Below the pieces are notes generated by a model that made no database searches, was not told the origin of the DNA, and saw only the letters and a list, made by a program, of their open reading frames with translations. From NCBI GenBank assembly GCA_016871515.1, contig VHDE01000001.1, positions 81,434-145,433 of the forward strand: a stretch of DNA of 64,000 bases. The letters run 5' to 3'. The position numbers and the translations under genes were made by a program. The stretch comes from Verrucomicrobiota bacterium (GTDB lineage Bacteria > Verrucomicrobiota > Verrucomicrobiia > Limisphaerales > SIBE01). Position 1 is the stretch's first letter. Every line of letters starts with the position of its first letter. Below, in pieces: positions 454 to 59,707 of this stretch.

Positions 454-516
454 GGCGAGTTCTCGGATCGCGTCTTGACTGTCGAGGCCATGAAGGTGAA
501 GGATGTGTTTGGCGTA

Positions 517-537
517 ACGCAGACTGAAAGTCTGCGT
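517..537. repeat. Solo copy of the family hairpin module (ACGCAGACT-GAA-AGTCTGCGT)
   Basis: Perfect 9-bp stem with a 3-nt loop. It has the same architecture as GCAGAGT-NNN-ACTCTGC modules at eight other sites in the window. Confidence 0.75.
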
Positions 538-5341: not shown

Positions 5342-5488
5342 GCAATGGGAGCGCGGACTGCCAAGTCCCCGCGTTTCTTCGCTTTATTTAATCGTCTGAC
5401 ACGCGGACTCGGCGGTCCGCGCTCCCATACGGACGACGTTGGCGCACTTGCTAAATGGACGCCAAACCGATTATTTTCGAAGTCATCG

Positions 5489-7101
5489 ATGTTGAAGTGT
5501 CTGAAGATCGTTTGTGTTGGGCTCGTCTGGTGTTTGGGGTTGACCGCTGTTGCTGTTGAGTCGGTCGATTACAACCGCGACATACGGCCGATTCTCTCAG
5601 CCAATTGCTTTGCCTGTCACGGACCCGACGAAAACGCTCGAAAAGCAAAGCTCCGACTCGATCAGTCCGAAGCCGCCAAGGCACAACGCGAAGGTGGTCC
5701 TGCTATTGTTCCTGGCGATGCCGGCAAGAGGGAGGTTGTGCGGCGAATCACCTCCACCGATCCGGACGAGGTCATGCCGCCTCCGAAATCGGGCCACAAG
5801 TTAACCACCGATCAGAGTGAAATGATCACGCGCTGGATTCGCGAGGGAGCGCCGTATGCGGTGCACTGGTCTTACACGCCGCCAAAGCGGCCACCGCTTC
5901 CAACTGTGAGGGACACGAGTTGGTTGCGGAATCCCATCGATTACTTCGTTCTCGGGAAACTGGAGAAAAATGGCATGTCGCCAGAACCCGAGGCAAGCAA
6001 GCAGGCTCTCGTTCGCCGACTTTCACCCGACCTCATTGGATTGGCGCCGACGCTATAGGAAGCCGACGCGTTTGTCGCGGATAACTCGCCAAACGCCTAT
6101 GAAAAGCTCGTGGACCGCCTCTTAGCGTCGGAGCACTTCGGAGAACATTGGGCACGCATGTGGCTGGATTTAGCGCGTTACGCGGATACCAAAGGCTACG
6201 AAAAGGATCAGGCGCGTTCGATCTGGAGGTGCCGCGATTGGGTGATCGACGCCTTCGATACAGACATGCCGTACGATCAGTTTACTCGCGAGCAATTAGC
6301 GGGCGACTTGCTTCCGAATGCCACCGAATCGCAGATTCTCGCAATGGAATCGAAGCTGTCAACTTTGCGCGAAGCATTTTGGGCGAAGTCACCGGCCCAG
6401 GCAGAAGGTCAGGCGGCGTGGGGAAGGAAAATCGCCGCACCAAATCCCTGGACGCCACTTAAGTTTATTTCGGGCGCGGGAATTGGCGGATCATCGCTGA
6501 CAGCTCGCGAGGACGGCAGCATCGCGGTTTCTGGAGTGTTTCCCGAGGCCGAGACGAACGTGATCCACGTTGCGGCGCCAAACGAACTGCTGAGCGCGAT
6601 GCGGATCGAGTTGCTCAACGATGAAGGAGTGAAAGGACCGGGCAGGAACAGCGCTGATCGCAACGTCGTCGTTTCCGAACTGATTGTCGCGTGGGAGAAA
6701 CGCGATGGAGCCATCGAACCTGTCAAGCTGAAGAACGCTCCCGCGGATTTCTCGATTCGACGCTGATTGTTTGGGGAGGCGAGTTCGGGCGGACGCCGAT
6801 GATGCAAAACAACGTTCGAACTGAATTGAAGAAAGGATACATTGGGCGCGATCATCATCCGCACGCCTTTACAATGTGGATGGCCGGCGGCGGGATCAAA
6901 CCTGGGCTGGCCTACGGAGCAACCGACGACATCGGTTATTACGGGGTTGAAAACAAAGTGAGCATTCGCGATCTTCAAGCAACTCTCCTTCACTGCCTAG
7001 GCCTCGATCCGCACAAGTCTAGTTTTGCCTACCAGGGATTGAATAACCGGTTGATCGGGCCAACGGACGAAGCGCGAGTCGCGCATGATATTCTGACGTA
7101 A
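5489..7101 (+). pseudogene. Decayed PSCyt1-DUF1549-DUF1553 gene fused by deletion to the C-terminus of a DUF1501 gene
   Basis: Signal peptide plus a CFACH heme motif. In-frame TAG at 6056-6058 inside the DUF1549 region. About 95 aa, including the CxxCHxHKYDP block, are missing at ~6345 relative to the intact paralog at 12760-15975. At 6743-6751 the frame switches to the DUF1501 C-terminus ([30 protein letters not shown]). Confidence 0.85.
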
Positions 7102-10571: not shown

Positions 10572-10646
10572 GATCTTGCTCTTGCCGGGTTCGATGGGGA
10601 GCAAGAGCAAGAGCAAGAGCAAGAGCATGATCAAGAGCAAGAATCC
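10572..10646. repeat. Hexanucleotide (GAGCAA)n element with an upstream inverted partner (copy 1)
   Basis: GATCTTGCTCTTGC (10572-10585), a 13-nt spacer, then seven GAGCAA-type units (five perfect) at 10599-10640. The flank CATGATCAAGAGCAAGAATC is shared with the locus at 56091-56111. Confidence 0.85.
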
Positions 10647-10726: not shown

Positions 10727-12166
10727 CTACGCCAACAATTTCTCGACAAGTTCGCCGTGCACATCGGTGAGCCGGAAATCACGGCCTTGAAAGCGATAGG
10801 TCAGCTTTGTGTGATCAAAGCCCAGCAAGTGGAGAATCGTGGCGTGCAAATCGTGAACGTGCACTTTGTCGCGCACGGCGTTGAACCCGAACTGATCCGT
10901 CTCGCCAAATGAAAGGCCGGATTTCACACCGCCACCAGCCAGCCACATTGTGAATGCATTCGGGTGGTGGTCGCGGCCATCATTGCCCCCTTGAACCATT
11001 GGTGTCCGCCCAAACTCACCGCCCCAAATTACGAGCGTGTCGTTCAGTAAGCCGCGCTGTTTTAGATCTTTAACCAGCGCCGCGCAGGCCTTGTCGGTAT
11101 CTTGGCAATTCTTCCGCAAGTCCTTAGTCAAATTGCCGTGTTGGTCCCAAGCTTCGTGGAACAGTTGCACGAAGCGCACGCCGCGTTCGACCAACCGCCG
11201 GGCCAAGAGGCAATTGTTGGCGAACGATGATTTGCCGGGCTCGGCGCCGTACATTTCGAGAGTGGCCTTCGATTCTTTCGAGATGTCCATCAGTTCCGGG
11301 GTGCTGGTCTGCATGCGATAGGCCATCTCAAAGGAATTGATACGTGTCGCAATCTCTGGGTCGCCCACGACATCGAGCCGTGTCGCGTTGAGACGCTTCA
11401 ACGTATTGAGCGAATCGCGCTGCATCTCGGCATCGACGCCTTTCGGATTGGAAAGGTAAAGAATGGGATCACCTTGGTTGCGGAACAACACTCCTTGATA
11501 AACGGATGGCAGGAATCCACAGCCCCAGTTCGACGCTCCGCCGCTAGTGCCTTTGCTGCCGGAACTGAAAACAACGTAAGCTGGCAAGTCTTGGGAGTCG
11601 CTCCCAAGGCCGTACGTAACCCACGCGCCCATGCTCGGACGGCCGAATTGGACCGATCCGGTGTTCATGAAGATTTGGCCGGGCGCATGGTTGAACGCAT
11701 CCGTGTGCATCGACTTCACAATGGCGATCTCGTCAACGACACTGGCCAAGTGCGGCAAGAGCTCGGACAACTCGGCGCCCGATCGGCCGTACTTGGCGAA
11801 CCTGAACTTCGGACCAAGCAGTTTCGAATTCGGATTGATGAACGCAGCCCGGTAACCCTTTAGAAGATCGCCTGGCGGCAGTTTCCCATTCCAGGCCGCG
11901 AGTTCGGGTTTGTAGTCGAATAGGTCAAGGTGGCTCGGCGCGCCCGCCATGAAGAGATAGATAACATTCTTAGCCTTCGGCGTGAAATGCGGCTGTTTGG
12001 GCGCCAGTGGATTGCTGAGACTGGGCCTGGCTGCCGCGCCGAAAAGCGTTTGATTCAGCAACGAACTCAGCGCAATGGCGCCGAGTCCGACACCGCATTC
12101 CTTGAAGAACCAGCGGCGGGTTATTTGCTTGCGGTACTCATTGAAGACATGACTCGAGATATTCAT
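10727..12166 (-). CDS. DUF1501 domain protein (sulfatase/alkaline-phosphatase-superfamily-like), Tat-type signal
   Basis: [19 protein letters not shown] signal; conserved [12 protein letters not shown] and [17 protein letters not shown] blocks. Confidence 0.9.
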
Positions 12167-12229
12167 GGGGTAATTCCTCAGGCCGGTTGGTCAAAGTGGA
12201 CACCGTTTCGCCGAGCGTGATCATGGGTT

Positions 12230-12714
12230 GTAGCGCAGAGTTTCACTCTGCCGTATCGCAGACAATCAGCCGCTCTTCGGCGGCGGAAGAATGCAGTAGC
12301 TGACAGTTGCAGCGCCCCTCTCCCTAACCCTCTCCCCATCCGATGGGGCGAGGGAATCGAGCTTTTGCGGTGGGCGATGCCTGATGGACGAACGTGCCCA
12401 GCGCCCAGGTCTTTTCCCTCTCCCCATCCGATGGGGAGAGATTTCTCCGAAACAGGATTTCGCTCATTGCACCCATGAACCACTGCGTCGGTAGGGCGGC
12501 GTTGCCGCGCCGCCGCGATTGCTGTTCGCAGGCTGCGGAGCACCGCAGCCCTACCTTTAGGTTCATGGAGAGGGTTAGGGAGAGGGGCAACATTCACCTT
12601 GCCACTTGGAAGACTTTCAGTCTGCGGCGCTCCCGCAAGATCACAAACGTTGGAACGCCCGAACACGCTGCCGACTGCAAGTCGGCGATAGAGCAGAGTG
12701 AAACTCTGCGCTAC
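12230..12714. repeat. Composite 485-nt MITE/REP-like element filling the DUF1553-DUF1501 intergenic gap
   Basis: Outer inverted repeats GTAGCGCAGAGTTTCACTCTGC (12230-12251) and GCAGAGTGAAACTCTGCGCTAC (12693-12714). Inner arms CCCCTCTCCCTAACCCTCTCCCC / GGAGAGGGTTAGGGAGAGGGG. A nested ATGAACC...GGTTCAT element lies at 12441-12568. Confidence 0.9.
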
Positions 12715-12759
12715 GAATACTGCGGTTGCCTTAATGCTCACGGCCCAGTTCGGTTAAGT

Positions 12760-15700
12760 CTATTCCTTCGTAATCGCTTCGTCCAAGTTCAACAGCACGC
12801 GCGAGACAGCTGTATAAGCTGCGAGTTGCGTCGGGGTTGCGCCAGTTGGCAACTTGGCCGGCTTTTCGTTTTTGCCGGTGGCGAGTTCGAAGGCGTTCAC
12901 CCAGCCTTCGGCAATTCGGTCGCGCTGGCGCTCGAGCATCGCGATCAACGTTTTCGTTTCATCGGTCGTAGGAGGACGGCTGAGTGTCCGGCGAAATGCA
13001 TAGGTAATCCGCTCGGCATCGGACGTGCCGCCTTCTTGGATCGATCGCAGAGCCAACCCTTGAGCACATTCCATCGAGAGCGTCTCATTCAACGTCATGA
13101 GCGCTTGTAACGGAGTGTTAGAGCGCAAGCGGCGTACGCACGAAAAATCGCCGTTTGGCGCGTCGAAGGTCTGCAGCATCGGATAGGGCGTCGAGCGGCG
13201 GCGGAAGGTGTAAAGCGCCCGGCGGTAACGGTCGGAGCCGGTTTCTTCCTTATATGGGAACGGCGCGTAACTGGCCGGTGGTTGAAATAGAAACTCCGGC
13301 GCCGGCGCATAGATCGAAGGCCCGCCTAACTTCGCATTCAACAGGCCGCTGGCCGCGAGTGCAATGTCGCGCACAATTTCACCTTCGACGCGAAAACGCG
13401 GTCCGCGGGCGAGCAGGCGGTTGTATTGATCCTTCGCATAAAGTTCAGGCGTAACTTTCGACGATTGCCGGTAAGTGGCCGAAGTCGTGATCAGCCGATG
13501 GATGTGCTTCAAGCTCCAGCCGTGATCCATCAACTCGACCGCCAGCCAATCCAGCAACTCGGGATGCGACGGCGCTTCGCTTTGCAGTCCGAAATCCTCG
13601 GAAGTGCTGACCAAGCCGGCGCCGAAATAGGTTTGCCAAACACGATTGACGATGACCCGCGCGGTCGTGGGGGATCTTCGATCCACCAACCATCTTGCAA
13701 AGATGAGGCGCGGCGGTTCCTGACTTTCTTGCAACGAATGGAGAAAGGCTGGCACGCCTGCATTCACTGATGCGCCCGGCTTCAGCCAATCGCCACGCTT
13801 CAATAAGTGCGTTGGCCGCGCGTCTTCACGAGCCATTAAGGTCAGCGCAGTCGAGCCGTTGGGCCACGATTTCCAAAGCGCTTCAATTTTATCGTTCGTC
13901 TCCTTGAACTCAGGAACTGTGGTCCGCCAGTAACTGAAGACGGCGGCGATCTGAAAGGCCGACCGCTTGTCGCGTGGAATCGCCAGGATTTCGCGCACGC
14001 GCTTCGGCAATGGGTCAGCCACGGCGTTGGCTGCAGCACTTATAGAGAGGCGAAAGCGACCGATGTTGTTGTTTTGGTGATCGTCGCTGTTCCAGCCACC
14101 ATGATTGTTTTTGAGATGGAACGTCAGGATGGTTCCGTTTGGAAAGGCCACGTTTGTGCTTGCGACAAAAACAGCCTTTCGATCCTGGTTTCGCCGGCCG
14201 GGTCCTGCGTCGATTCCCCAAGCCGTGTCATCGTTGCCATCAATCGCGAAACTGACCGGCCCGGTCACGCGACGTTTGTCAGACTTGTCGTAAAAGTTTG
14301 GTTCTAGTTCGCGCTCTTCGTTGGCGAAATCCGCGGAGACTTCGACCAATCTCGCAGTCACTTTGTTGGTCGGGCTTTGCGCATCAGCCGCTTCCACTCG
14401 GAACTCCGTAAGCGCGCAGGCGCCCTTGAACGATCGGCCTGGTCCGTTGCAAGGCAAGTTTGGGTCTGTGAGCAATTCAAGCCGGAACGCCCGAATCACC
14501 GGGGCAGCGTTGGTGGCGGCAAATGAGAACGTAAACTTGGTTGGCGCGTAACCGAGGCCAAGCGAAGAACCATCCTTCTGCAAGAAGAAGCGCGTGTTCC
14601 CGTCACTAATCTGTTCGGTCGGCACGACGGTCCATTCTGGTTCATTGTCTTTGACCGAGGTTTCCCACTGAGCCATCCGTTCTGCCCAATCGGACTCGGT
14701 GTGTCGCAGACCCTCTTCCAGATCGCGAATCTGGCGCGTGATATCCGCGACGCGCCGTTGTTCCTCGGCTGTGTAAACGATCCGTTCGGCTTCGTGATCG
14801 CTATTAATGAAAGCGAAGAGTTTGTAATACTCCTCTTGAGTGATCGGATCGTACTTGTGGTTGTGGCATTGGGCACATTGGATGGTGAGTCCCAGGACGC
14901 TTTTGCCGATCGCATCCATGCGGTCGAACATCGCGTCCATCCGGAATTGTTCCGGGTCCACGCCGCCTTCCTCGTTGATCATCGAGTTTCGCAGAAAGCC
15001 GGTCGCGACGATTTGGTCCTGGCGGGCATTCGCCAGTAAATCGCCGGCGAGCTGTTCGATGATGAACTGGTCGTAGGGCAGGTCCCGGTTCAGCGCATTG
15101 ATGACCCAATCGCGATAAAACCAGACCGAACGCGACTTGTCCTTCTCGTAGCCATCCGAATCGGCATAACGCGCCGCATCCAGCCAATGCCGTCCCCAGC
15201 GCTCACCGTAATGCGGCGAGTTCAACAGGCGTCCGATCTGCTTTTCGTAGGCGTCTTTGCTGGTGTCCGCGAGAAACGCATCCACCTCCGCAATCGCGGG
15301 CGGCAGCCCAACTAGATCGAGACTCAAGCGACGAAGCAACGTGGTCTTGTCCGCCTCGGGCGACGGTTTGAGTTGTTCTTTCACCTTCTCTTTGCCCTTC
15401 TCCCGTTCCAACGTCTCCTTCTCCAATCGAGCGAGAATGAAATTATCGATCGGGTTGCGAATCCAATCCTTGCCTTGGACTGCGGGTGCGGGCGGTCGAA
15501 CCGGCGCTTTGAAAGCCCAGTGTTGTTTCGAATCTTTTTCCGCAACGGCAACGTCCGGCCAGTCAGCGCCCTGATCGATCCACGCGCGGATCAAGCCAAT
15601 CTCTTGCGCGTTGAGTGGTTCGCCTTTTTTCGGCATGCGTTTCAAATCATCTCGGGCGCCTGCCACCGCATGAACGAGCAAACTCTCCGCGCTCTTGCCC

Positions 15701-15975
15701 GGAACAATGGCCGGTCCCGAGTCGCCTCCTTTGAGGGTTGAAACCTTTTGGTCGAGCCGCAAGCCATGCTCCTGTTTCTGCGATCCGTGGCATTCGTAAC
15801 AATTCTGCGCCAACAACGGCTGAATATCCTTGGCAAAATCAATCTTGCGGCTGGCCACCGGCGGCAATTTCGCCAAGTCCACGGCGGCTGCGTGCGCCCT
15901 GAACGTGTCCAAGTGGAAGGTAACAGCAATCGAGACCAACAGACCGATGCCTGGAGCAGAAATGAAAGACTTCAT
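12760..15975 (-). CDS. PSCyt1 (planctomycete cytochrome c) - DUF1549 - DUF1553 multidomain secreted protein
   Basis: ATG at 15975 gives the signal peptide MKSFISAPGIGLLVSIAV. Motifs include CYECHG heme motif, WGRHWLDAARYADSDGYEKD (DUF1549), CAQCHNHKYDP, and a long DUF1553-type C-terminus. The track start at 15993 is a TTG. Confidence 0.9.
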   Translation of the reverse strand: MKSFISAPGIGLLVSIAVTFHLDTFRAHAAAVDLAKLPPVASRKIDFAKDIQPLLAQNCYECHGSQKQEHGLRLDQKVSTLKGGDSGPAIVPGKSAESLLVHAVAGARDDLKRMPKKGEPLNAQEIGLIRAWIDQGADWPDVAVAEKDSKQHWAFKAPVRPPAPAVQGKDWIRNPIDNFILARLEKETLEREKGKEKVKEQLKPSPEADKTTLLRRLSLDLVGLPPAIAEVDAFLADTSKDAYEKQIGRLLNSPHYGERWGRHWLDAARYADSDGYEKDKSRSVWFYRDWVINALNRDLPYDQFIIEQLAGDLLANARQDQIVATGFLRNSMINEEGGVDPEQFRMDAMFDRMDAIGKSVLGLTIQCAQCHNHKYDPITQEEYYKLFAFINSDHEAERIVYTAEEQRRVADITRQIRDLEEGLRHTESDWAERMAQWETSVKDNEPEWTVVPTEQISDGNTRFFLQKDGSSLGLGYAPTKFTFSFAATNAAPVIRAFRLELLTDPNLPCNGPGRSFKGACALTEFRVEAADAQSPTNKVTARLVEVSADFANEERELEPNFYDKSDKRRVTGPVSFAIDGNDDTAWGIDAGPGRRNQDRKAVFVASTNVAFPNGTILTFHLKNNHGGWNSDDHQNNNIGRFRLSISAAANAVADPLPKRVREILAIPRDKRSAFQIAAVFSYWRTTVPEFKETNDKIEALWKSWPNGSTALTLMAREDARPTHLLKRGDWLKPGASVNAGVPAFLHSLQESQEPPRLIFARWLVDRRSPTTARVIVNRVWQTYFGAGLVSTSEDFGLQSEAPSHPELLDWLAVELMDHGWSLKHIHRLITTSATYRQSSKVTPELYAKDQYNRLLARGPRFRVEGEIVRDIALAASGLLNAKLGGPSIYAPAPEFLFQPPASYAPFPYKEETGSDRYRRALYTFRRRSTPYPMLQTFDAPNGDFSCVRRLRSNTPLQALMTLNETLSMECAQGLALRSIQEGGTSDAERITYAFRRTLSRPPTTDETKTLIAMLERQRDRIAEGWVNAFELATGKNEKPAKLPTGATPTQLAAYTAVSRVLLNLDEAITKE

Positions 15976-16043: not shown

Positions 16044-16270
16044 CCCCTCTCCCTAACCCTCTCCCCATCCGATGGGGAGAGGGAATCGAGCTTTGGCGGT
16101 GCTCGATGTCTGATGGACGAGCGTGTCCAGCGCCCAGGTCTTTTCCCTCGCCCCATCGGATGGGGAGAGGGTTAGGGAGAGGGGCGCTGCAACTGTCAGC
16201 TACTGCATTCTTCCGTCGCCGAAGAGCGGCTGACTGGCTGCGATACAGCAAAGTGAAACCCTGCGCTACG
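16044..16270. repeat. MITE/REP-like element with 30-bp terminal arms
   Basis: CCCCTCTCCCTAACCCTCTCCCCATCCGAT (16044-16073) pairs with ATCGGATGGGGAGAGGGTTAGGGAGAGGGG (16155-16184). It is followed by the CGCTGCAACTGTCAGC...GCGATACAGCAAAGTGAAACCCTGCGCTAC module. Confidence 0.9.
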
Positions 16271-16290
16271 ACCGGCGCGCGTTCTGACGG

Positions 16291-17041: not shown

Positions 17042-17551
17042 CTATGGCTCATTTTTGTCCCGATTTTCTGAGCCTTGCTGACGAAGCCACTCGCGATAGA
17101 TGGCGGGGGTGTCTGGCAGCAGCTCGAAAAACGACTCCGCCCGCTCAAGCTTGCGTTTGACGTTGTCCACGGCCAGTCCCAGCCCGTTGTTCGCTATGGG
17201 ACGAGTCGCCGCCACTCAAAATTCATGGGCAACCTGTGGAACGATCTGAATATCGTCTTTCCGACGCAGCAGCGTGCGGACACACTCGCGCGCCTCGCGG
17301 TGCATGGGATGATTGCGCTTTGCCATGCGCAGGAGGATATTCGTGTCGAGAACGTAGCGCACCAGCCATCTGCTCAGCCCGGTGCGCTTTCGGCTTTGCG
17401 GATATAACGCGATCCCTCTTTGGAGTTCGCCAACCGTGACTGCGGACAGGTAGAGTTCGGTTTCATGTGCTTCGAGCCAGCCCAATACTCTCGGATTTGG
17501 CGAAAGGCGGGTGGCTTCCCACAAAACGTTCGCATCCGTCAGGAAGTTCAT
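17042..17551 (-). pseudogene. Two collapsed PIN-domain (VapC) toxin genes
   Basis: The N-terminal half of a FitB-like VapC (MNFLTDANVLWEATR..VLGWL...LSAVTVGELQRGI) joins directly to the start of a second PIN gene (RYVLDTNILLR...IVPQVAHEF). An in-frame TGA at 17216-17218 lies where such PINs have EFW-vaTRP, followed by VAATRPIANNGLGL. The C-terminal ~50 aa are missing. Confidence 0.7.
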
Positions 17552-17721
17552 AACAGCGCCTCACCGGGAACATCTCGGAACTTTTCCACCGCCAGATCCT
17601 TGACCGGACATGACTGAAGCACATGAACGATTTTCTTCCTGGCCGGCTTGAGTTTCTTGTATTCAGCGACGGAGATATTCCTGTTCAAATCTTTGAGTCT
17701 TCGCGTCCTTGCGGCTTTGCG
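17548..17721 (-). pseudogene. C-terminal remnant of the cognate Phd/YefM-type antitoxin
   Basis: The open frame ...NISVAEYKKLKPARKKIVHVLQSCPVKDLAVEKFRDVPGEALL ends in TGA overlapping the vapC ATG (ATGA). There is no start codon, and the frame is bounded upstream by TAA. Confidence 0.5.
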
Positions 17722-21269: not shown

Positions 21270-21521
21270 CATAGCGCAGAGTTCTGCTTGGCCATATCGC
21301 AGCCAATCAGCCGCTCTTCGTTTGGCGCAAGAGTGCAGGAGTTCACAGTTGCAGCGCCCCTCCCCATGAACCTGCAGGCATGTAGTCCCGCCTTTAGGCG
21401 GCTAAGCCGGGACTACATGCCGCAACGCCAGGTTCATCGGCGCCATGCGTGAAAATCTGTTTCGGAGAAGTAACCCTCTCCCTAAGGATTGGCGATACAG
21501 CAGAGTGAAACTCTGCGCTAC
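21270..21521. repeat. Composite 252-nt MITE/REP-like element
   Basis: The degenerate left terminal repeat (ATAGCGCAGAGTTCTGC...) and the intact right one (GCGATACAGCAGAGTGAAACTCTGCGCTAC) enclose an ATGAACC...GGTTCAT hairpin element with the stem GCATGTAGTCCCG/CGGGACTACATGC. Confidence 0.85.
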
Positions 21522-23075: not shown

Positions 23076-24080
23076 CTAATGCGCCGAAGGTTTAGAAGGG
23101 GTGAGCAATCGACCGGTTGCAGCTTCCCAAACTTTAATTTCTCCCGACCAATCGCCGGTAGCAAGCGTGCGGCCATCCGGACTTATCGCCAATGCATAAA
23201 TCCAATCGTCGTGAGCTTGCCATTGCCTGAGGATCGCATCGCTCTCGGAATCGATGACGCGCACGATTCCCTCTTTGCCTGCCGAAAACAACTGCGCGCC
23301 ATCGCGGCTGTAAACGAGCGCAAAGATTGGCCCTTGATGATGCCGGACAATGCGCACCATCCGCCCAATTTCGGGCTGCCAAACGCGCACGGTGTGATCA
23401 TCGCTGCCGGTTGCGCAGAAGGCAGGGCGCGCTTCTCCGCCGAACTCCGAACCTAAGGGTCGAAAGGCGAGGCAATGAACAATCGCCGTATGGTGACTGA
23501 ACGAACGCAACAGCTTTCCTGTGGGTATCTCCCAAACCTTCACCGATCGGTCGGCGCTTGTCGAAACGGCGAGCCGTCCATCCGGGCTGAACGCAACGGC
23601 CAAGACCGGGCCAGCATGACCAGCCATTGACTGCATCGCCACTGATCGTCCTCGCTCACCAATCTTGAACAACTCAACGTTCCCGTCGCTTCCTGCCGCC
23701 GCCATATATTGCGAATCTGGACTGAACGAAACGCTGTTCACCAAATCCGAGCGATTTGTCGCCTGGAACAAGATGGTGTTCGCCCCCCATTGAGTAAGTT
23801 GGACGCCCCCGACGGCGCCGGGGACTCCACCAGCAATCGCCAGGAAATGTCCCTCACGGCCAAACGAGATCGACGAAACACGTGGCAAAACGCATGGCAA
23901 CGCCCATTGCCGCGATCCGTCTTTGACGGAATAGCCCACTACGGAGCCCGGCCCGGAAGCTGTGAGAGTATTGCCATCCGGCGAGAAGGTTAACGCGGTG
24001 ATTGGCAAACGCCGGGAAGCCGGCTGCCCAAACAGCACTTCGCAACTCAAAAACGAAACAAAAAGAATCAGCCACCTCAC
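23076..24080 (-). CDS. Secreted WD40-repeat beta-propeller protein
   Basis: The GTG start overlaps the upstream stop (GTGA at 24077-24080). It has a signal peptide (MRWLILFVSFLSCEVLFG) and about 7 WD40 units (SPDG..LA..G.D..V.VW). Confidence 0.85.
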   Translation of the reverse strand: MRWLILFVSFLSCEVLFGQPASRRLPITALTFSPDGNTLTASGPGSVVGYSVKDGSRQWALPCVLPRVSSISFGREGHFLAIAGGVPGAVGGVQLTQWGANTILFQATNRSDLVNSVSFSPDSQYMAAAGSDGNVELFKIGERGRSVAMQSMAGHAGPVLAVAFSPDGRLAVSTSADRSVKVWEIPTGKLLRSFSHHTAIVHCLAFRPLGSEFGGEARPAFCATGSDDHTVRVWQPEIGRMVRIVRHHQGPIFALVYSRDGAQLFSAGKEGIVRVIDSESDAILRQWQAHDDWIYALAISPDGRTLATGDWSGEIKVWEAATGRLLTPSKPSAH

Positions 24081-25432
24081 ACTAACTCGGAAATGAAACT
24101 TCCTTCCGCCATAATCTTCAGCGGCCGATTTCCACTCGCCAGATATTCTTTGATCGGATCGACTCCAAGTAGTTTGAGAATGGTAAAGGCCGCGTCCTCA
24201 GGCCGCACCGGCCGCTCAACAGGCACCTCACCGTAAGCATCGGTAGCGCCGATCACCTGACCACCACGCACACCACCCCCAGCGAAGCAGACTGAACCAG
24301 CACGAGGCCAATGATCGCGTCCACCCAAACTGTTCAATTTCGGCGTGCGCCCAAATTCGCCCATCAACACAACCAGCGTCGTTTCGAGCAAGCCGCGTTC
24401 TTTCAAATCCGTCAGCAACCCGGAATACGCTCGATCCAACGCCGGCAGCTTGCCGCTGCCAGGGAAAAACGCATCCGGCAGCGCCTTGAAAATCTGTTGA
24501 TGCGTGTCCCAACCAGTATCCACCACTGTCACAAAACGCGCCCCCGCCTCGACCAACCGCCTCGCCAACAAACAGCCCGTGCCGATGCGGCTGCGTCCGT
24601 ACCGGTCGCGATTCGCGGCGCTTTCGCCGGACAGATTGAACGCGGCCTTCGCTTGAGGAGAGGTAATCAGTCGATAAGCCTGTTCGTAAAAAGCATCGCG
24701 GCTTTGCGTGGAAGGCCCTTCTTCGATCGCGCGCGAAAAATCGTCAATGCTCTTCAGCATGCTTTGACGACGTTGTGTTCGGTCAAAACTGACGCCTTCC
24801 GGCGCATCGAGATCGCGGACTTTATAATCACCGCGGGAGGGGTCGCCGCCAACGCTAAACGGCGCATAAGCGCCTGGCAAGTAGCCAGCCTTTGCGGCGC
24901 CTGAATCGCCGCCCACCCCGTCGTTTGGTATGGCCAAATATGGCGGCATCGCTCTGGCAAAGCCGGTCTCATGCGCGACGATGCTGCCGAGACTCGGATA
25001 GTTGACCGCCGGAGTTGGGCGATGACCGGTCAACAGATAACGCGCCCCGGTGTCATGATTGCCTAATTCGTGAGTGAGCGAACGAATCAACGCCACGTCT
25101 TGCATCACCTTGGCTGTGCGGGGCAAATGCTCGCAAATCTGAATGCCGCTCGCGCTTGTCGAGATGGGTTTGAAGTCACCACGAATTTCGTGTGGGGCAT
25201 CCGGTTTCAGGTCGAACATCTCGAGATGGCTCGGACCGCCATCCAGCCAGATGAGAATGCAGGAATTGTCCTTCGGAGACCGAACACGTCGTGCCGAATC
25301 CCCCGCGACTGCTTGAAATCGGAACATGTCAGCGAGGCTCACGCCCAGGCACGAGAGCGTACCCAAGTGCAGGAAATCGCGACGGCTTATTCCATCGCAG
25401 CGGCAATCACGCTGTTTTAGTTTTGTTTTCAT
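24077..25432 (-). CDS. DUF1501 domain protein, Tat-type signal
   Basis: ATG at 25432. SRRDFLHLGTLSCLGVSLA signal; LMGEFGRTPK and GGRDHWPRAGSVCFAGGG blocks. Confidence 0.9.
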   Translation of the reverse strand: MKTKLKQRDCRCDGISRRDFLHLGTLSCLGVSLADMFRFQAVAGDSARRVRSPKDNSCILIWLDGGPSHLEMFDLKPDAPHEIRGDFKPISTSASGIQICEHLPRTAKVMQDVALIRSLTHELGNHDTGARYLLTGHRPTPAVNYPSLGSIVAHETGFARAMPPYLAIPNDGVGGDSGAAKAGYLPGAYAPFSVGGDPSRGDYKVRDLDAPEGVSFDRTQRRQSMLKSIDDFSRAIEEGPSTQSRDAFYEQAYRLITSPQAKAAFNLSGESAANRDRYGRSRIGTGCLLARRLVEAGARFVTVVDTGWDTHQQIFKALPDAFFPGSGKLPALDRAYSGLLTDLKERGLLETTLVVLMGEFGRTPKLNSLGGRDHWPRAGSVCFAGGGVRGGQVIGATDAYGEVPVERPVRPEDAAFTILKLLGVDPIKEYLASGNRPLKIMAEGSFISELV

Positions 25433-25445
25433 ACTGTTGTTTGCC

Positions 25446-25476
25446 GTAACGCAGAGTTGCACTCTGCTGTATCACC
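25446..25476. repeat. Family hairpin module (GTAACGCAGAGT-TGC-ACTCTGCTGTATCACC) inside a 50-nt intra-operon gap
   Basis: 7-bp core stem with a 3-nt loop. The flanks are identical to the terminal repeats of the composite elements. Confidence 0.85.
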
Positions 25477-25482
25477 ACGAGC

Positions 25483-27672
25483 CTAGTGATTATACGCGAA
25501 CTCGCGAGAATTCAACAACGCCCAGAGCAAGTCCTCAAGTGCCTCCGCGCGGTCTGATGTCGCCACAAGCGTTTCCCATTGCGCCGTCTCATGCGATTCC
25601 GGCGATCGGCCCATCGTCGCGAAATAGAAGCTGGTGATGATTTCCGGCATTGGCCGGTTCGCATCGAGATATTTTGCCACAGCTTGTTTCAACTTCCCGT
25701 TAATTGTTGGCCCGTTGATCAAATGCAATGCCTGTGACAATCCGCCGCCGCTTTGCCCAGCACTTTCGCAAACCGCTTCACGCTCGCAGCGCCCGAAAAC
25801 ATCGAGCGCGTACGACTGGACAGCCGGATCCAGAAGCTGCACCGCGCGCGTTCCCTCCGGATACCCGGAATAATCGCCGGCGATTCCGGTGGCCTGCGAC
25901 ACCGCATCGGCGAGCACCTGAGCACTTAGCGGTTTGGCATAGGCGCTCGCAAACAAGCGATCGTCCAGGCGATTGACTTCATTCGCTCGCGACGACAACT
26001 GGTACGTGCGCGAGGCGGCGATCGTCCGAACAAGCCTTCTCAGATCGTAACCGCCCTTGATAAAGTCGCTCACCAAAGCTTCCAGCAATGCCGGGTTCGA
26101 AGCGGGGTTCGTCACGCGCAAATCGTCCACCGGCTCAATCAGTCCGCGACCCATCAACTCCTTCCACACGCGATTGACCAGCGCACGGCCCAAAGCTCGG
26201 TTCTCATTCGACCTCAACCATTCCGCGAAATGAGCGCGCCGGTCGGAGGGCAGCTCACTCGGTTCACTGGCGCCGAGCGGTTTCGCGTTCATCCGCTGGT
26301 TGGTTTTGGGATGCAGGACTTCGCCATGAGTATTCAGTGAAACAGTCTGGCCATCGACGGTCGTCCGCGCGAAGTACGCGGCGAAGCGGTGATAATCCTC
26401 CTGCGTCCATCGATCCGTCGGATGATTATGGCAACGGGCGCACGCGACTCGAATTCCGAGCAAGGCCCGGCTGGCATAATCCGCCATATCGCGAGGATCC
26501 TGCTTTAACCGATGGAAGTTAGCGGGACCATACTCAGCCGCGTTTCCCTGGGCAGTCAAAAGTTCGCTGACCAATTTATCCAGCGGCGTGTTGCTCGCGA
26601 CGTGACGACGCAGCCAAGAGTAATACGCTCGCGCGGGAGCATCGCCGAGGCGTTTGGAATGAATCAACAGCAAGTCAGCCAGTTTCATCGTCCAAAAATC
26701 GATGAACCCGTCGCTGGCCAGCAGATCGTCGATGACCCGTTCGCGCGCTGCCGCGTCCCTTGGAGAGTTCAGGAACGCGCGCACATCCGCTTCGGTGGGC
26801 AAAGCTCCGATCAGGTCAAGATGAATGCGCCGATAAAATTCGCTGTCATTGCTTAGCGGCGAAGGGGGAAGCCGCAAACGTTTCAACTCCTTTAAGACCC
26901 ACTCATCGACGAGCGTGCGCGTGGCAAATTCGATCTTGTCTAGCGGCGTTTCCTGAAATGGCACGGCGACACGAACGGCCGCGACCTGCCCAGAGTAACG
27001 CACCATAATCGCCGTGACACCGCGGCGTCGCACGGTGACTGCGCCCTGGTTATCTACTTCCGCCAAGCTGTCGTCGTTTGAGCTGTATAACGCCAAGCCG
27101 GAAACCTCTTGTTGGCCGCCATCAGAAAGTAACGCCGTCACGCGGATGCGGAATGTGCTGTTCGTTCGTTCGAGCAAAACATCGCTCGGCTGCACCTCGA
27201 TTCTCTCGACTCGCAAACTCCGGTTGCCGTACGGCGCGCCACTGGCAATCCAATCCGCGATTTTTGCGCAAGCCTCGGAGTCGCGCTTGATTCGCCTTCC
27301 ACCTTCGTGCTCGATTTGCCGTGTCGGCTTAAGCAGCACGAGACTCCGGGCCGGGGTCGCGAGATCGATTCGGCGCCCTTCCAATTCGCGCGTAATTGCT
27401 TCGTAGTCGCTTTCTGGATCGTAACCGAGCAAACTGAGCCGGAAGCCCCCTTGCCCGACCGCCGCTCCGTGGCATGCGCCCGAGTTGCATCCGGCTTTCG
27501 TCAACAGCGGAAGAATTTGCGTGGGAAAATCGAGGCGTCCTATGTTCGGACCGTCGGTAGCACAGGCTGTCAGCACGCCCAGGGAAATGCAGAACGCCGA
27601 GAAGACGCGAGACAGCCAAAACGGTAGTGCGCAACGCTCCGTACGGTTCACGGGGAAGGGCCCAAGGCTCAT
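25483..27672 (-). CDS. DUF1549 / Ig-like (BIG2) / DUF1553 secreted protein with an N-terminal CNSGACH motif
   Basis: The ATG at 27672 overlaps the stop of the upstream gene (ATGA). Features include signal peptide, GCNSGACHGAAVGQGGFRLSLLGYDP, BIG2-like segment (VTALLSDG..EVSGLALYSSNDDSLAEVDNQGAVTV), CARCHNHPTDRW, and a DUF1553-type C-terminus. Confidence 0.85.
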   Translation of the reverse strand: MSLGPFPVNRTERCALPFWLSRVFSAFCISLGVLTACATDGPNIGRLDFPTQILPLLTKAGCNSGACHGAAVGQGGFRLSLLGYDPESDYEAITRELEGRRIDLATPARSLVLLKPTRQIEHEGGRRIKRDSEACAKIADWIASGAPYGNRSLRVERIEVQPSDVLLERTNSTFRIRVTALLSDGGQQEVSGLALYSSNDDSLAEVDNQGAVTVRRRGVTAIMVRYSGQVAAVRVAVPFQETPLDKIEFATRTLVDEWVLKELKRLRLPPSPLSNDSEFYRRIHLDLIGALPTEADVRAFLNSPRDAAARERVIDDLLASDGFIDFWTMKLADLLLIHSKRLGDAPARAYYSWLRRHVASNTPLDKLVSELLTAQGNAAEYGPANFHRLKQDPRDMADYASRALLGIRVACARCHNHPTDRWTQEDYHRFAAYFARTTVDGQTVSLNTHGEVLHPKTNQRMNAKPLGASEPSELPSDRRAHFAEWLRSNENRALGRALVNRVWKELMGRGLIEPVDDLRVTNPASNPALLEALVSDFIKGGYDLRRLVRTIAASRTYQLSSRANEVNRLDDRLFASAYAKPLSAQVLADAVSQATGIAGDYSGYPEGTRAVQLLDPAVQSYALDVFGRCEREAVCESAGQSGGGLSQALHLINGPTINGKLKQAVAKYLDANRPMPEIITSFYFATMGRSPESHETAQWETLVATSDRAEALEDLLWALLNSREFAYNH

Positions 27673-28888: not shown

Positions 28889-29338
28889 TCAAGGCCTCGT
28901 CATCTCAAAGATGCCATGATCGTGTTTGGATCGGTAGGTGGAGAAAAAGTTGGTCGGAGTTGCGCGGCCGGAATAAAAGTACTGTCCGCCGGCGAGCCAG
29001 CCCAGATCAGCTTCCCCTTGAAACGTAAAGAGATCGTTTGTCCTCTGCACGTTCAACACAACTGTATATCCGAAGCTCAGTATCTTGCGGTACTTTGCGT
29101 GAAAGCGCGCTTCGTACTTTCCGGGCGAGCTCTGCGAAACGAGACAGCGCAAGCGCCCATTGTGTCCGTTGACTTCGCTCAACCAGCGCCCATCCCAGCG
29201 GCCTTGAATATCATTCGCCGGAACTGGATTTGCGGCAGCTCGCTTCCAATCGCGGTTAAAAGTCGAACAACCGCCCGCAAGGAGCAGCAGCGGTAGAATC
29301 ACGAGCGCGCAGAGACGCTGAAAGAAGCTCCTCCCCAT
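28889..29338 (-). CDS. Small lipoprotein, unknown function
   Basis: The ATG at 29338 gives MGRSFFQRLCALVILPLLLLAGGC (lipobox LAGGC). The longer track ORF extends into repeats. Confidence 0.7.
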   Translation of the reverse strand: MGRSFFQRLCALVILPLLLLAGGCSTFNRDWKRAAANPVPANDIQGRWDGRWLSEVNGHNGRLRCLVSQSSPGKYEARFHAKYRKILSFGYTVVLNVQRTNDLFTFQGEADLGWLAGGQYFYSGRATPTNFFSTYRSKHDHGIFEMTRP

Positions 29339-29344
29339 GACCCT

Positions 29345-29540
29345 GCGCGGCAGGATAGGCGTCCTGCCTGTCCTGCCAAACGGTTTCATGGCTCCAATGA
29401 TTGAAAATGTGTTTCGGAGACATCTTTCCGATGAACGCGGTAGCAGCGCAGCGTTTGCGCTTCTTCTGCGTTTGGAGCTCCAGCGACGTCGGACATTGAA
29501 GCGGCGTAAACGCCGCGCTCCTGCGGCCAGGTTCATGCAG
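29345..29540. repeat. Cluster of family repeat modules
   Basis: GGCAGGATAGGCGTCCTGCCTGTCCTGCC (also at 41830-41855), AAAATGTGTTTCGGAGACATC (a variant of AAATTTTGTTTCGGAGAAGTC), and GAAGCGGCGTAAACGCCGCGCTCCTGCGGCCAGGTTCAT (also at 58424-58456). Confidence 0.8.
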
Positions 29541-29550
29541 AAGCTCGATT

Positions 29551-34318: not shown

Positions 34319-34413
34319 ATGAAACATTGCGCCGGTAGGGCGGCGTTGCTGCGCCGCCAAACGTCGGGGTTTATCGAGGCGGCGCAGCAACGCCGCCCTG
34401 CCTTCAGGTTCAT
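34319..34413. repeat. ATGAAAC...GGTTCAT-bounded hairpin element
   Basis: The stem GTAGGGCGGCGTTGCTGCGCCGCC (34335-34358) pairs with GGCGGCGCAGCAACGCCGCCCTGCC (34378-34402). Confidence 0.9.
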
Positions 34414-34532
34414 AGTAGCGTCATTTCAGCTTGTCTAGTGAGGGCTCCATTAAGCGCAAGGAAGATTTGCTGCGCAAGCGGGTAATTCATCGTTGAAGAA
34501 CTGCAAATGAGGATTAGAGTAACGCAGTGACG

Positions 34533-35312: not shown

Positions 35313-35332
35313 TTCGCCTGGTTGGTAGGGCG

Positions 35333-35412
35333 GCGTTGCTGCGCCGCCTAGATCGCGGCTTTAACCAGGCGGCGCGGCAACGCCGCCCTACCTTTCTACC
35401 TTTAGGTTCATG
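35333..35412. repeat. Hairpin element of the same class; its terminal GGTTCATG supplies the ATG of the next ORF
   Basis: GTAGGGCGGCGTTGCTGCGCCGCC pairs with GGCGGCGCGGCAACGCCGCCCTACC. The terminal AGGTTCATG ends at 35412. Confidence 0.9.
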
Positions 35413-35676: not shown

Positions 35677-35762
35677 GTCTTGCCGAGAACCCAACCAGAC
35701 GGCGCCGTCTACGGGCGTAAACGCTTCAAATCTTCTAAGACGCTCGAACTTGCGGGCGATTC

Positions 35763-35980: not shown

Positions 35981-35987
35981 TTTCTTT

Positions 35988-58306: not shown

Positions 58307-59707
58307 ATGTTGCGCCTAAACCATAAGTGTATAACCCCAATTGCCTCTTTCCATGAACCTGGCTCCAGGAGAGCGGCGTTTACGCCGCTTCAACTTCCAG
58401 ACGTGAGGGAGCTTAGCGAGCCGAAGCGGCGTAAACGCCGCGCTCCTGTGGTTCATGGGCGCAATACGCGAAATTTTGTTTCGGAGAAGTCTTACAATGA
58501 ACCTTCTTCCTGTAGCGGCGTCTCGGGAGAGCGTCGCCAGCTCGGGTTCTTTGAAAATGGCGGCGCTCTTCCGAGACGCCGCTACAGGGAGAAGATTATT
58601 GGTCCCGATCGATACGCTGTTCTCTTCGCCATCGCGTTGGTCTTTTGGGGACGGGGTTTCGCGCAGGAATCCGGCGCAACTCCACCGCCATCGCCCTGGA
58701 ACAATATTTACAACATTCGGAGCTGGGCTGGTTACAAGGACAATGTATTGCTGGGCAACCGTTCAACCGTGGACAACGCCTTCGTCGCCGGCGGGTTGGA
58801 CGCGCTTTTGTGGCGAATGCCGGTGAATGGCTGTGAATATTTCTTTTTCGGGACGGCCGACTACCTGCGGTACTTTCCGGGTGACGAGGTAAACAAGGAG
58901 TTAACTGCAATCGCTCAGGCTCAGGTTAAGAGACATTTTAATGACGGCTGGCGAACTGGACTTTCGCTCGATTACGTTTATTTCGATCAGGTGTTCGATA
59001 ATTCGACGTTCGAGCGCGAGCAGGCGTCTATCCAAGTGCAAGCGCATAGTTTGACGTTGCGCCCGTCGGTCCGAAAAGAGATTGCCAAGCATTGGTTTGA
59101 GTTGGAGTTTCCAATAACTCGCCAGGACTTCAGAGAATTCATTGATGATTATTGGGAAGGCGGGCCGAAGCTGATTTGGGGCCGTAAGTACAGCGAGAAA
59201 TCTGAGATAAGCGTGAGCTACGAATTCAATAATCGTTTCCATGACACGCGTGAGATTCGCGATGCGCAAGGTGGGTTGGCGCCCGGAACCAATTTAGAGT
59301 TTCAGCAGCATGAAGTCTTTGCCTCGTTGCGGCATTACTGGGACAAAGCTCAACGGTGGCGCACGCTTGCCAGGATCGGTCTCGAGCGTAACGATGATAA
59401 TGGCTCGGGTTATTACGATTACTGGAGACCGCAGCTAACGCAGCAGGTTCGCTATCAGACGAAAGTTTGGGAAGTGAAGTCGGAGGCTCGGCTCTCTTAT
59501 TACGATTACGATTCACAGCCACTGAGCGATGTTGATCCATCTACGCGGCACAGACTCAATCTCATCCTAAATCTTCGCGGCGAACGAACCCTATTCAAAA
59601 GCTTGAAATGTTTTGCCGAATACGAACATGAACGCTCGATCTCGAATCTCGGGTTCGATGAATACAAGGTGAACACCATTATGGGCGGGGTAGATTGGGG
59701 GTTTTGA
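58307..59707 (+). CDS. Putative outer-membrane beta-barrel protein; true start unresolved
   Basis: From ~58592 the ORF reads KIIGPDRYAVLFAIALVFWGRGFAQE (signal-peptide-like), then alternating-hydrophobic strands ending ..GGVDWGF (terminal aromatic). The first ~95 codons of the ORF are translated repeat elements. There is no in-frame ATG/GTG/TTG just upstream of the signal peptide. Confidence 0.55.
   Translation: MLRLNHKCITPIASFHEPGSRRAAFTPLQLPDVRELSEPKRRKRRAPVVHGRNTRNFVSEKSYNEPSSCSGVSGERRQLGFFENGGALPRRRYREKIIGPDRYAVLFAIALVFWGRGFAQESGATPPPSPWNNIYNIRSWAGYKDNVLLGNRSTVDNAFVAGGLDALLWRMPVNGCEYFFFGTADYLRYFPGDEVNKELTAIAQAQVKRHFNDGWRTGLSLDYVYFDQVFDNSTFEREQASIQVQAHSLTLRPSVRKEIAKHWFELEFPITRQDFREFIDDYWEGGPKLIWGRKYSEKSEISVSYEFNNRFHDTREIRDAQGGLAPGTNLEFQQHEVFASLRHYWDKAQRWRTLARIGLERNDDNGSGYYDYWRPQLTQQVRYQTKVWEVKSEARLSYYDYDSQPLSDVDPSTRHRLNLILNLRGERTLFKSLKCFAEYEHERSISNLGFDEYKVNTIMGGVDWGF
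58351..58587. repeat. Family repeat cluster (two hairpin elements plus the TTCTCCGAAAC module)
   Basis: CCATGAACC..GAGCGGCGTTTACGCCGCTTC..GAAGCGGCGTAAACGCCGCGCTC..GGTTCATGG, then GCGAAATTTTGTTTCGGAGAAGTC. GTAGCGGCGTCTCGG (58512-58526) pairs with CCGAGACGCCGCTAC (58571-58585). Confidence 0.85.

Follow-up and report, generated by a model that had tools for sequence, protein, structure and literature searches.

Hairpin repeats between the genes of the window

The stretch analysed here, hereafter the window, comprises 64,000 nucleotides (nt) of a Verrucomicrobiota genome (contig VHDE01000001.1, positions 81,434 to 145,433). The spaces between its genes carry hairpin-rich repeats, which a preliminary description had treated as a single modular family of 13 sites resembling miniature inverted-repeat transposable elements (MITEs) or repetitive extragenic palindromic (REP) elements. 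These intergenic repeats are real, and most of them are GTAG-tagged REPs and REPINs (REP doublets forming hairpins) nested in one another. They constitute at least seven nested families rather than a single one. The elements belong to the known kind formed by GTAG REPs or REPINs and REP-associated tyrosine transposases (RAYTs), which is on record in the phylum from Opitutus terrae. Two components, a carrier built on block (d) and block (b), are not yet explained. The building blocks are designated (a) to (f), and fetched stretches of other genomes and contigs are given L-numbers (L198, L473 and so on).

All 13 sites were read by eye and contain the motifs ascribed to them, far above chance. 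The block (a) core, GCGCAGAGTNNNACTCTGC, has 19 matches in the window with up to 3 mismatches (0.69 expected), and the block (b) palindrome lies at 8 places where 0 are expected. Repeat finding and self-BLAST of the window recovered every listed site. All were said to be intergenic; with genes called on the public contigs this holds for 12 of the 13, the site at 517-537 overlapping the first 50 nt of a called peptidase S46 open reading frame (ORF). The sites sum to 2,400 nt (3.75% of the window) and not to the roughly 2.9 kb (4.5%) first estimated. At 41652-41855 only the short modules 41679-41720 and 41829-41853 are repeats, the stretch between them not being repeated, and the original list missed a palindromic family (44381-44503 and 51058-51102). 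The features are as follows; where no strand is given, none was assigned.

514-535, plus strand: single (a) REP hairpin, GTAACGCAGACT-GAA-AGTCTGC, a GTAA tag variant with a compensated stem, at the 5' end of the called peptidase S46 ORF
12230-12274, plus strand: left (a) arm of a 485-nt composite, with GTAG tag and hairpin 1 intact and hairpin 2 degenerate
12315-12588: (b) doublet in the composite, with outer arms (12315-12327 and ~12575-12588), hairpins (12328-12354 and 12416-12442) and the core between; its right arm is broken by an insert of (d), frame and REPIN, the intact comparison copy being 16044-16184
12441-12568, plus strand: carrier inserted in (b), with GGAGAG on either side, d leader (12441-12473), frame (CCATGAACC at 12473-12481, GGTTCATGG at 12560-12568) and, as interior, a (c) REP doublet (12490-12555) in the variants GGTAGGGCGGCG... 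and GGTAGGGCTGCGG..., both of which flank a RAYT-like gene in L423
12670-12714, minus strand: the composite's right (a) arm, with hairpins 1 and 2 intact
16044-16184: intact (b) doublet without insert, the 'empty' reference for interrupted copies
16185-16269, minus strand: linker x and a degenerate (a) arm, GCAAAGT-GAA-ACCCTGC
21271-21521: (a)-bounded element of 251 nt, with a decayed left arm (21271-21300) and a right (a) arm (21492-21521); its interior holds a frame (21363-21440) around a REP doublet of the GTAGTCCCG type (21378-21420), and a d leader on the minus strand (21440-21471)
25446-25473, plus strand: single (a) REP, which takes up the 50-nt spacer separating a PSD1 from a DUF1501 gene
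29333-29423, minus strand: carrier with d leader (29390-29423), frame (29333-29343 and 29382-29391) and a single (e) REP (29349-29373; GGCAGGATAGGCGTCCTGCCTGTCC, GYAG-type tag)
29430-29543, plus strand: second framed unit, GATGAACGC ... (f)-type REP at 29498-21 (GAAGCGGCGTAAACGCCGCGCTCC) ... GGTTCAT
34319-34415: (c) REPIN (34334-34402, two inverted GGTAGGGCGGCGTTGCTGCGCCGCC units) within the frame ATGAAAC...GGTTCAT
35324-35414: (c) REPIN (35324-35392) with the frame reduced to its right half (35405-35414)
35762-35979: composite of an (a)-like hairpin (35762-35779), a (b) doublet (35803-35917) whose core is inverted with respect to 12328-12440, linker x and a decayed (a) arm (35948-35979)
39070-39284, plus strand: (b) doublet (39070-39185) with a carrier in its right arm (d at 39186-39218, frame, single (c) REP at 39235-39264)
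41679-41720, minus strand: half (c) REP and right half of a frame
41829-41853, plus strand: isolated (e) REP hairpin
44381-44503: extra palindromic family, from repeat finding, with a half copy at 51058-51102
49947-50079: canonical intact (a) REPIN of 133 nt, two hairpins per arm, GTAA tags
58351-58492, minus strand: carrier with d leader (58459-58490), frame (58351-58359 and 58450-58458) and an (f)-type REP doublet (GGAGAGCGGCGTTTACGCCGC...)
58497-58587: framed REP doublet next to the preceding carrier, of another GTAG type (CTGTAGCGGCGTCTCGG...CCGAGACGCCGCTACAG)

The window is contained in the 122-kb contig Ga0194119_10000192 of JGI metagenome sample 3300020220. Positions 727-22166 of the window equal a public contig (L120) at 99.99%, and the JGI, ENA and Logan assemblies from several samples match the window at 99.9% or more. 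Since these independent assemblies agree, the sequence is not an assembly artefact. Short-read contigs end inside repeats at positions 12259, 16171 and 58436, the usual sign of a dispersed repeat, and the contig reaching past the end of the window is 3.8 kb long and itself broken in a repeat. Copies were also counted in 248 kb of non-redundant sequence from other Ga01941xx contigs, none overlapping the window; judging from one title of a metagenome-assembled genome (MAG) and from the sample names, we take these samples to come from Lake Tanganyika. This sequence holds 7 copies of (a), 12 of (b), 22 of (c), 24 further sites of (d), 4 of (e) and 5 of (f), densities of the same order as in the window, with (a) at about one quarter of the window value and (d) slightly above it. 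The modules are also present at hundreds of loci in other species, with different flanks each time. They are thus neither confined to the window nor parts of one duplicated segment, the two outcomes named at the outset as refuting a dispersed family.

The additional palindromic family at 44381-44503 has 42-nt arms, GGTCAGGACGGATTCCACTCTAATGACTTTCGGTAATTCAA, which are 95% complementary and enclose a GTCCCTCCGGGAC core. Related copies lie on other lake contigs, one of them inside a carrier (L468). ORFs of 97, 163 and 149 aa are called across repeats at 29337-29630, 35680-36171 and 49747-50196; they have no Pfam hits and are probably spurious, seeded by the repeats.

Block (a) is a two-hairpin REPIN

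Block (a) is a REPIN whose two inverted 45-nt arms are separated by a spacer of about 45 nt. Each arm consists of an unpaired GTAG tag, here often GTAA, followed by two short hairpins. A search pattern allowing any compensated inner stem was applied to the window and to 221 loci of other genomes (L001-L119, L130-L231). It found 217 hairpins, tagged GTAG (194), GTAA (18) or GTGG (5), with the inner stems GAGT/ACTC, GATT/AATC, GACT/AGTC, GGTT/AACC and GAAT/ATTC. Inverted doublets, 78 in number, account for 156 of the 217 hairpins, and 43 of the 78 have the modal length of 133-134 nt. The preliminary description had distinguished elements of 137, 252 and 485 nt with different cargo. The first (49946-50082; 133 nt between its GTAA tags) is the canonical unit, and the supposed cargo of the others consists of other families inserted between the same ends. 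The canonical unit at 49947-50079 is matched over its full length in 64-127 BLAST alignments to loci of other species, these being alignments and not distinct loci.

Compensatory covariation was formally assessed for block (a) in an alignment of 55 doublets from many Verrucomicrobiota (alignment A2), which displays two hairpins per arm and a spacer conserved in length, not in sequence. Over the four hairpins, 98.6% of the cells are paired, compared to 87.5% in shuffled alignments, and none of 500 shuffles reaches the observed value. The number of cells changed on both sides is 184, compared to 61.7 in shuffles and 4-40 with slid partners. Hairpin 2, which was not used in choosing the sequences, covaries at least as strongly; its pair 34-40, for example, is UA in 24 doublets, AU in 17, CG in 7 and GC in 7. 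Moreover, both arms of one doublet often differ in their compensated stem, which indicates that selection acts on each intrastrand hairpin. Finally, no two of 54 doublets have the same flanks, and no target-site duplication is seen at their ends, the outcome of a check suggested at the outset. The only regularity in these flanks is a preference for C before GTAG and for G after CTAC.

GTAG-related tags in the other hairpin cores

Blocks (c) and (e) and three more types likewise have hairpin cores that are REP doublets tagged GTAG or GYAG. Block (c) reads GGTAGGGCGGCG-TTGCTG-CGCCGCC and forms clean inverted doublets at 34334-34402 and 35324-35392. Its pattern was found in more than 112 stretches, mostly of Verrucomicrobiota. 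An 81-nt (c) interior is identical at 6 distinct loci, with two further copies near-identical. The cores at 21378-21420 (GTAGTCCCG type) and 58510-58587 (GTAGCGGCGTCTCGG type) are both GTAG-tagged. Block (e) is a GG[C/T]AGGA-hairpin with a degenerate GYAG tag (GGCAGG / GGTAGG), and the GGAGAGCGGCG type, block (f), carries a degenerate GGAG tag.

Block (b) has the form of a REPIN

The (b) unit consists of a 13-nt outer arm and a hairpin, CCCTCTCCCC-ATCSGAT-GGGGAGAGGG, two such units being inverted around a sequence-variable core. The core measures 33-43 nt in most copies and up to ~70 nt in others, with hairpin starts 88-97 nt apart. The loop-closing pair varies between A-T, T-A, G-C and C-G. 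More than 119 verrucomicrobial stretches contain the exact hairpin, and in other species (b) is also seen as a 75-nt three-stem unit with a GGCC hairpin. In L050 it lies among rpsB, tsf, pyrH and frr, genes named by reading ORF translations. Block (b) is REPIN-like in form and is found across the phylum, with no transposase linked to it among 119 loci. Two RAYT genes in (b) loci were considered as the enzyme of (b) and rejected, since they lie at a distance of 4-6 kb and the REPs that flank them are of other types. The ORFs between close (b) copies were likewise rejected, being housekeeping genes.

Block (d) and its frame form an asymmetric carrier

Block (d) and the ATGAACC...GGTTCAT frame make up an asymmetric carrier. 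A metagenome scan for (d) followed by ATGAAMC returned 50 stretches, 49 of them from Ga01941xx samples; one (d)-like block was found in another species (L243). The plan common to 29 carrier copies is [GGGGAGAG] AYT TCTCCGAAACAnnWTTTCGYGCATTGMRCCC ATGAACC [interior] GGTTCAT GGGGAGRG. About five types of REP doublet can form the interior, and each type has a fixed context of its own. An empty frame, ATGAACC-ACAGGAGCCA-GGTTCAT, is present in L474 as the counterpart of the frame at 58351..58492, where filled copies read ACAGGAGC[GCGGCG...CTCCTGGAGC]CA. Two events fit this difference between empty and filled frames, namely insertion in the frame hairpin's loop and a precise loss. The carrier, with its 31-nt d leader and its CCCATGAACC...GGTTCATGGG frame always enclosing one of several unrelated REP doublets, could be a new composite non-autonomous element. 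Such an element could capture resident REPINs and move with them, or it could be a landing pad whose hairpin loop is a preferred site of RAYT insertion.

Elements are nested up to four levels deep

The region 12230-12714 folds as nested hairpins with -147 kcal/mol (z = -12.65). From the outside in, it consists of (a) arms, a linker that always accompanies (b), a (b) doublet, and a carrier with a (c) doublet in the right arm of (b). The carrier at 12441-12568 sits between two GGAGAG hexamers in a (b) arm that is intact at 16145-16184. At 39070-39284 a carrier breaks the same (b) arm at a position that differs from the 12.4-kb copy. The segments 12226-12363 and 16136-16273 share 138 nt and are 93% complementary. 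The whole 485-nt composite has a 75%-identical paralogue in L473 between unrelated genes, which indicates that it was copied as a unit. Nesting reaches up to four levels.

Orthologous positions can carry different repeats: 3' of an orthologous oxidoreductase gene, the 44381-44503 palindrome is found in the window and a (b) unit in L044. The pyruvate-oxidoreductase operon of the window has 86% protein identity to a 'Verrucomicrobia bacterium' MAG; this, the PSCyt/PSD1/DUF1501 gene pairs and the taxonomy of the genomes sharing the repeats make Verrucomicrobiota the most likely affiliation. Among the fetched loci of GTDB representatives, nothing matched the window apart from a single gene at 78% identity. 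Three PSCyt/PSD1-DUF1501 gene pairs (window 10727-15975 and 24077-27672; L473 825-4809) have (a) repeats in each spacer, with a bare 28-nt hairpin as the smallest and the 485-nt composite as the largest, either through site preference or through inheritance with the duplicated gene pairs. Short ORFs of 237, 202 and 100 aa at 5345-7101, with PSCyt1, PSCyt2 and DUF1501 hits, look like a decayed pair of this kind, and 6065-6322 is similar to 15025-15282 within the intact PSD1 gene.

RAYT genes are flanked by these repeats in related genomes

The E. coli RayT protein (from NC_000913) was searched against the six-frame ORFs of all loci and matched 4 of them. In L198 and L132 the RAYT gene is bordered on both sides by an (a) doublet. 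The gene in L015 has GTAGGGCAGGC-type doublets on both sides, and the gene in L081 is followed by a GGAGCGCCGGC-type doublet similar to the GGAGAGCGGCG type of the window. Scores on the NCBIfam model NF047646 ('REP-associated tyrosine transposase', curated cutoff 80 bits) are 94.5 for L198, 97.3 for L015, 81.3 for L460 and 80.6 for L374; the L198 and L015 proteins also pass Pfam Y1_Tnp (29 bits, cutoff 23). The sole PDB match of the L198 protein is E. coli TnpArep (4ER8). The alignment covers the HUH (HvH) motif and the YvvNNPV / YiyINPV region, which is taken to hold the catalytic tyrosine of this family.

A scan with an alignment of three RAYT proteins, using one genome per species, found relatives in 575 of 600 candidate stretches, and the flanks of the best 80 were surveyed. 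Nearly all verrucomicrobial and planctomycete RAYT genes among these 80 are flanked by GTAG hairpins. Those encoding proteins at least 54% identical to the L198 protein have flanking hairpins of the GTAGCGCAG type, that is of the (a) kind, and with two exceptions these lie on both sides; in the closest relatives of L198 these hairpins carry a GTAGCGCAGAnT...AnTCTGC stem. More distant RAYT clades among the 80 are flanked by other GTAG hairpins. In all, (a)-flanked RAYTs were seen in L198, L132 and about 10 further loci of related genomes.

Block (c) has a comparable neighbour. In L423, a stretch of another verrucomicrobial MAG, (c)-type REPs lie on either side of a RAYT-like gene, at ~100-150 nt and ~300 nt from its two ends. 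The REP GGTAGGGCTGCGGTGCTCCGCAGCC matches the right arm 12531-12555 of the window exactly; the other, GGTAGGGCGGCGCTGCTGCGCCGCC, has the stem of the left arm 12490-12514 and a different loop. An acidobacterial MAG (L374) contains a shortened RAYT gene with GTAGGGCG-type hairpins as flanks. The arrangement around the RAYT genes flanked by (a) and other GTAG hairpins is the REPtron pattern, in which GTAG REPs accompany transposases, repeat-specific ones where a species has several families (PMC3733652).

The lake contig L460 (GC 57%) carries both a RAYT gene, scoring 81.3 bits as given above, and a carrier with (d) and (c), and it probably belongs to the same organism as the window. This RAYT gene is flanked on both sides (L460 150-560 and 1330-1650) by 2-3 tandem units of ~100 nt, and every unit includes a GCGAACCGTCCCGGTTCGC hairpin as well as a GGGACGTCCC palindrome; for a REPtron, so array-like a flank is unusual. 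A different organism of the same metagenome, a low-GC Planctomycetota MAG, has its own RAYT with 68-70-nt GTAGCGCAGGC-TTCCA-GCCTGC doublets (L266 1408-2190), which share the GTAGCGCAG head with block (a) across phyla. Many verrucomicrobial repeats and RAYTs were also met in third-party-annotation (TPA) MAGs (L008, L015, L134 and others) labelled 'uncultured Bifidobacterium/Bifidobacteriaceae', 'Candidatus Limnocylindrales' or 'Acidoferrum'; these labels look taxonomically mis-assigned.

How the repeats may have spread

The structure, covariation, dispersal and nesting of the repeats and the association of gene and repeat in relatives are direct observations. The reading that we prefer, with a probability of roughly 0.75, is that the window holds several co-resident REP and REPIN families, nested in one another and spread by RAYTs, the last part by analogy with characterised REP systems. 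On that analogy, a RAYT of the HUH/Y1 type, encoded once elsewhere in the genome and itself flanked by its own REP type, would recognise REP hairpins as folded single-stranded DNA. It would read the tag and cut and rejoin single strands beside it, probably at the replication fork, and doublets would spread to new intergenic sites without target-site duplication. On this reading the region 12230-12714 was built stepwise, with a (b) doublet placed between (a) arms, a unit of (d), frame and REPIN placed in a (b) arm, and the composite later copied whole. RAYT chemistry may thus be what moves these elements in this genome, as the known mechanisms of RAYTs and of the insertion sequences (IS) IS200/IS605 (PMC3479197, PMC3116915, PMC6006769) suggest.

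Several observations weigh against spread by RAYTs. Consistent with the transposase-free window described before, no RAYT was found in all its six-frame ORFs by phmmer with E. coli RayT or by jackhmmer with a verrucomicrobial RAYT. A RAYT gene elsewhere, which had been suggested as a place to look, is present in relatives (L198, L132, L423) and on the lake contig L460. However, the hairpin flanking the L460 gene, GCGAACCGTCCCGGTTCGC, is of a different type, absent from the window, and no (a)- or (c)-flanked RAYT was found in sequence of the source lineage (window and lake contigs). The RAYT-like protein of L423 scores 75.6 bits on NF047646, just below the cutoff. Block (b) has no GTAG tag and no adjoining RAYT in the 119 loci. 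The d leader is one-sided, which makes the carriers asymmetric, unlike classical REPINs, and GGGGAGAG-like direct repeats border them; these could be a target-site duplication, which would point to a different kind of enzyme. The covariation of hairpin 1 is partly built in by the search pattern. Most (a) arms of the window are decayed and a single doublet is intact; the (a) family may therefore be inactive in the source genome. Public assemblies of the locus all represent one strain, and no presence/absence polymorphism was seen among them. Mobilisation in trans by a RAYT/IS200-like enzyme, as first proposed, fits (a) and the (c)/(e) cores, whose repeats flank RAYTs in relatives, and no enzyme is demonstrated for (b) and (d). 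We consider it doubtful, though conceivable, that the carrier and block (b) are more than ordinary REPs. Block (b) could be moved by a not-yet-recognised enzyme or be a domesticated structural element.

The label 'MITE/REP-like' is apt in its second half for (a) and the (c)/(e) cores, which have GTAG tags and form inverted doublets. Classical MITEs would have terminal inverted repeats and target-site duplications and be moved by the cut-and-paste DDE transposase of an IS elsewhere; candidates are the carriers and perhaps (b), and we regard this as improbable even for some of the modules. Most of the 29 carriers have GGGGAGAG at the left border and GGGGAGRG at the right one, and removing one GGAGAG at the 12441-12568 insert would restore an intact (b) arm. 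The outer inverted arms of the (b) doublets measure 10-13 nt, CCCCTC[AT]CCC / GGG[AT]GAGGGG, and the lack of an adjoining RAYT in the 119 (b) loci would also agree with a MITE. However, the G-rich border motif of the carriers is also the (b) arm and resembles the 5' end of the element itself, so that it may be a target preference or a part of the element instead of a target-site duplication, and in several copies it is missing from one border. Neither the window nor the surroundings of the copies inspected showed a DDE transposase. For (a), the 54 independent sites without duplication and the ends, the same GTAG hairpins that flank RAYT genes, exclude a classical MITE. An origin by segmental duplication or recombination of a few ancestral segments alone, for instance with duplicated PSD1-DUF1501 pairs, is largely refuted and deserves very little credence. 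The presence of (a) within the three PSD1-DUF1501 spacers and the 138 nt shared at 93% by the two composites would suit it, but flanks differ at all 54 canonical doublets and 29 carriers, the L473 paralogue lies between unrelated genes, and similarity ends sharply at the element ends.

The hairpins might instead be functional elements selected by the host, such as 3'-end stabilisers, attenuators or terminators, protein-binding sites or small RNAs, with an incidental RAYT link. E. coli REPs have documented roles of this kind (summary in PMC3733652), many species share (a) and (b) with nearly every base conserved, the hairpin covariation amounts to selection on structure, and some copies occupy operon-like spacers (PSD1-DUF1501 three times, rpsB-tsf-pyrH-frr in L050). 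We nevertheless find host function an unlikely full account. Rfam 15 has no match at gathering score in the whole window. Terminator-like sites are not enriched (26 between 25 and 42 kb, where 22.6 +/- 5.2 are expected), two modules matching weakly, and the modules lack T tails. The copies occur in both orientations and are decayed, truncated and nested, as is typical of insertions, in unrelated flanks and with different families at orthologous spots in different species. RAYT genes flanked on both sides in dozens of genomes would be left unexplained. The mobile and host-function views are not exclusive, and a secondary host use alongside mobility is possible. CRISPR arrays, group II introns and tRNA-derived elements were rejected on anatomy, as there are no regular spacers, intron domains or tRNA-like folds.

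Relation to known REP systems

GTAG REPs, REPINs, RAYTs and REPtrons have been described by Nunvar (2010, PMC2817692), Bertels and Rainey (2011, PMC3116915) and Di Nocera (2013, PMC3733652). The repeats of the window share with them the unpaired 5' GTAG tag followed by a short hairpin, the inverted doublets with a spacer, the extragenic location and the high copy number. As in GTAG REPtrons, there are several families per genome, (a) and (c) flank RAYT genes in related genomes, and (a) has no target-site duplication. REP dimers inside longer 'target palindromes' are a further likeness, known from Anabaena variabilis, Thermomicrobium roseum and Halothiobacillus neapolitanus (PMC3733652). In the phylum itself, the verrucomicrobium O. 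terrae has the families GTAG-17, -19 and -20 (PMC3733652). Unlike in GTAG REPs, the (a) arm comprises two covarying hairpins (45 nt) and not one, and in many species the doublet has the same length of 133-134 nt although its spacer sequence is not kept. The nesting is unusually deep. The associated RAYTs are longer than known ones (~230-250 aa, with an N-terminal extension), and the L460 RAYT is 26% identical to E. coli RayT over 92 aligned residues (tblastn).

The intergenic mosaics, with REP hairpins in alternating orientation joined to a small set of other conserved motifs, recall the bacterial interspersed mosaic elements (BIMEs) of E. coli. There is no sequence relationship, however, and the mosaics here are whole elements inserted in one another, not a fixed linker grammar. 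The asymmetric carrier with its different structured ends resembles palindrome-associated transposable elements and miniature derivatives of IS200/IS605, as expected for Y1 single-strand transposons, but no IS200/IS605 copy with carrier ends was found and the possible flanking direct repeat is foreign to that family. Block (b) is comparable to CGTC-tagged REPs (Di Nocera 2013, PMC3733652) in being an abundant hairpin doublet with no dedicated flanking transposase gene found. It differs from them in having no CGTC tag, a stem made of a 10-11-bp C/T-rich run, and extra outer arms.

The repeats described here form a set of verrucomicrobial REP families that have RAYT clades to match, and the set reaches into Planctomycetota. 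To our knowledge, REPIN-RAYT systems have been studied almost only in Gammaproteobacteria. A 134-nt REPIN whose architecture is kept across dozens of species offers an independent test of REPINs as long-lived, vertically inherited replicators, and the deep nesting and the framed carriers are material for asking where RAYTs insert their substrates. In practice, the repeats interrupt short-read assemblies and give rise to spurious ORFs when genes are called in MAGs of the phylum.

Other features of the window

A textbook intrinsic terminator, GACCAGGCGAC-TGATAAG-GTCGCCTGGC followed by TTTTTG, is found at 58264-58300, after a gene ending at 58210 and just upstream of a repeat cluster; its form indicates that real terminators here differ from the repeat modules. 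Small genes at 17216-17688 and 41360-41575 have faint PIN and weak VapB-antitoxin hits, suggesting toxin-antitoxin modules, and one of them adjoins the repeats at 41679-41853. Finally, a hexanucleotide array, (GAGCAA)n, at 10589-10645 recurs as its reverse complement, (TTGCTC)n, at 56000-56077, 45 kb apart and with similar flanks. The array at 56 kb shows a 6-nt difference between public assemblies (L128, L129), consistent with one unit.

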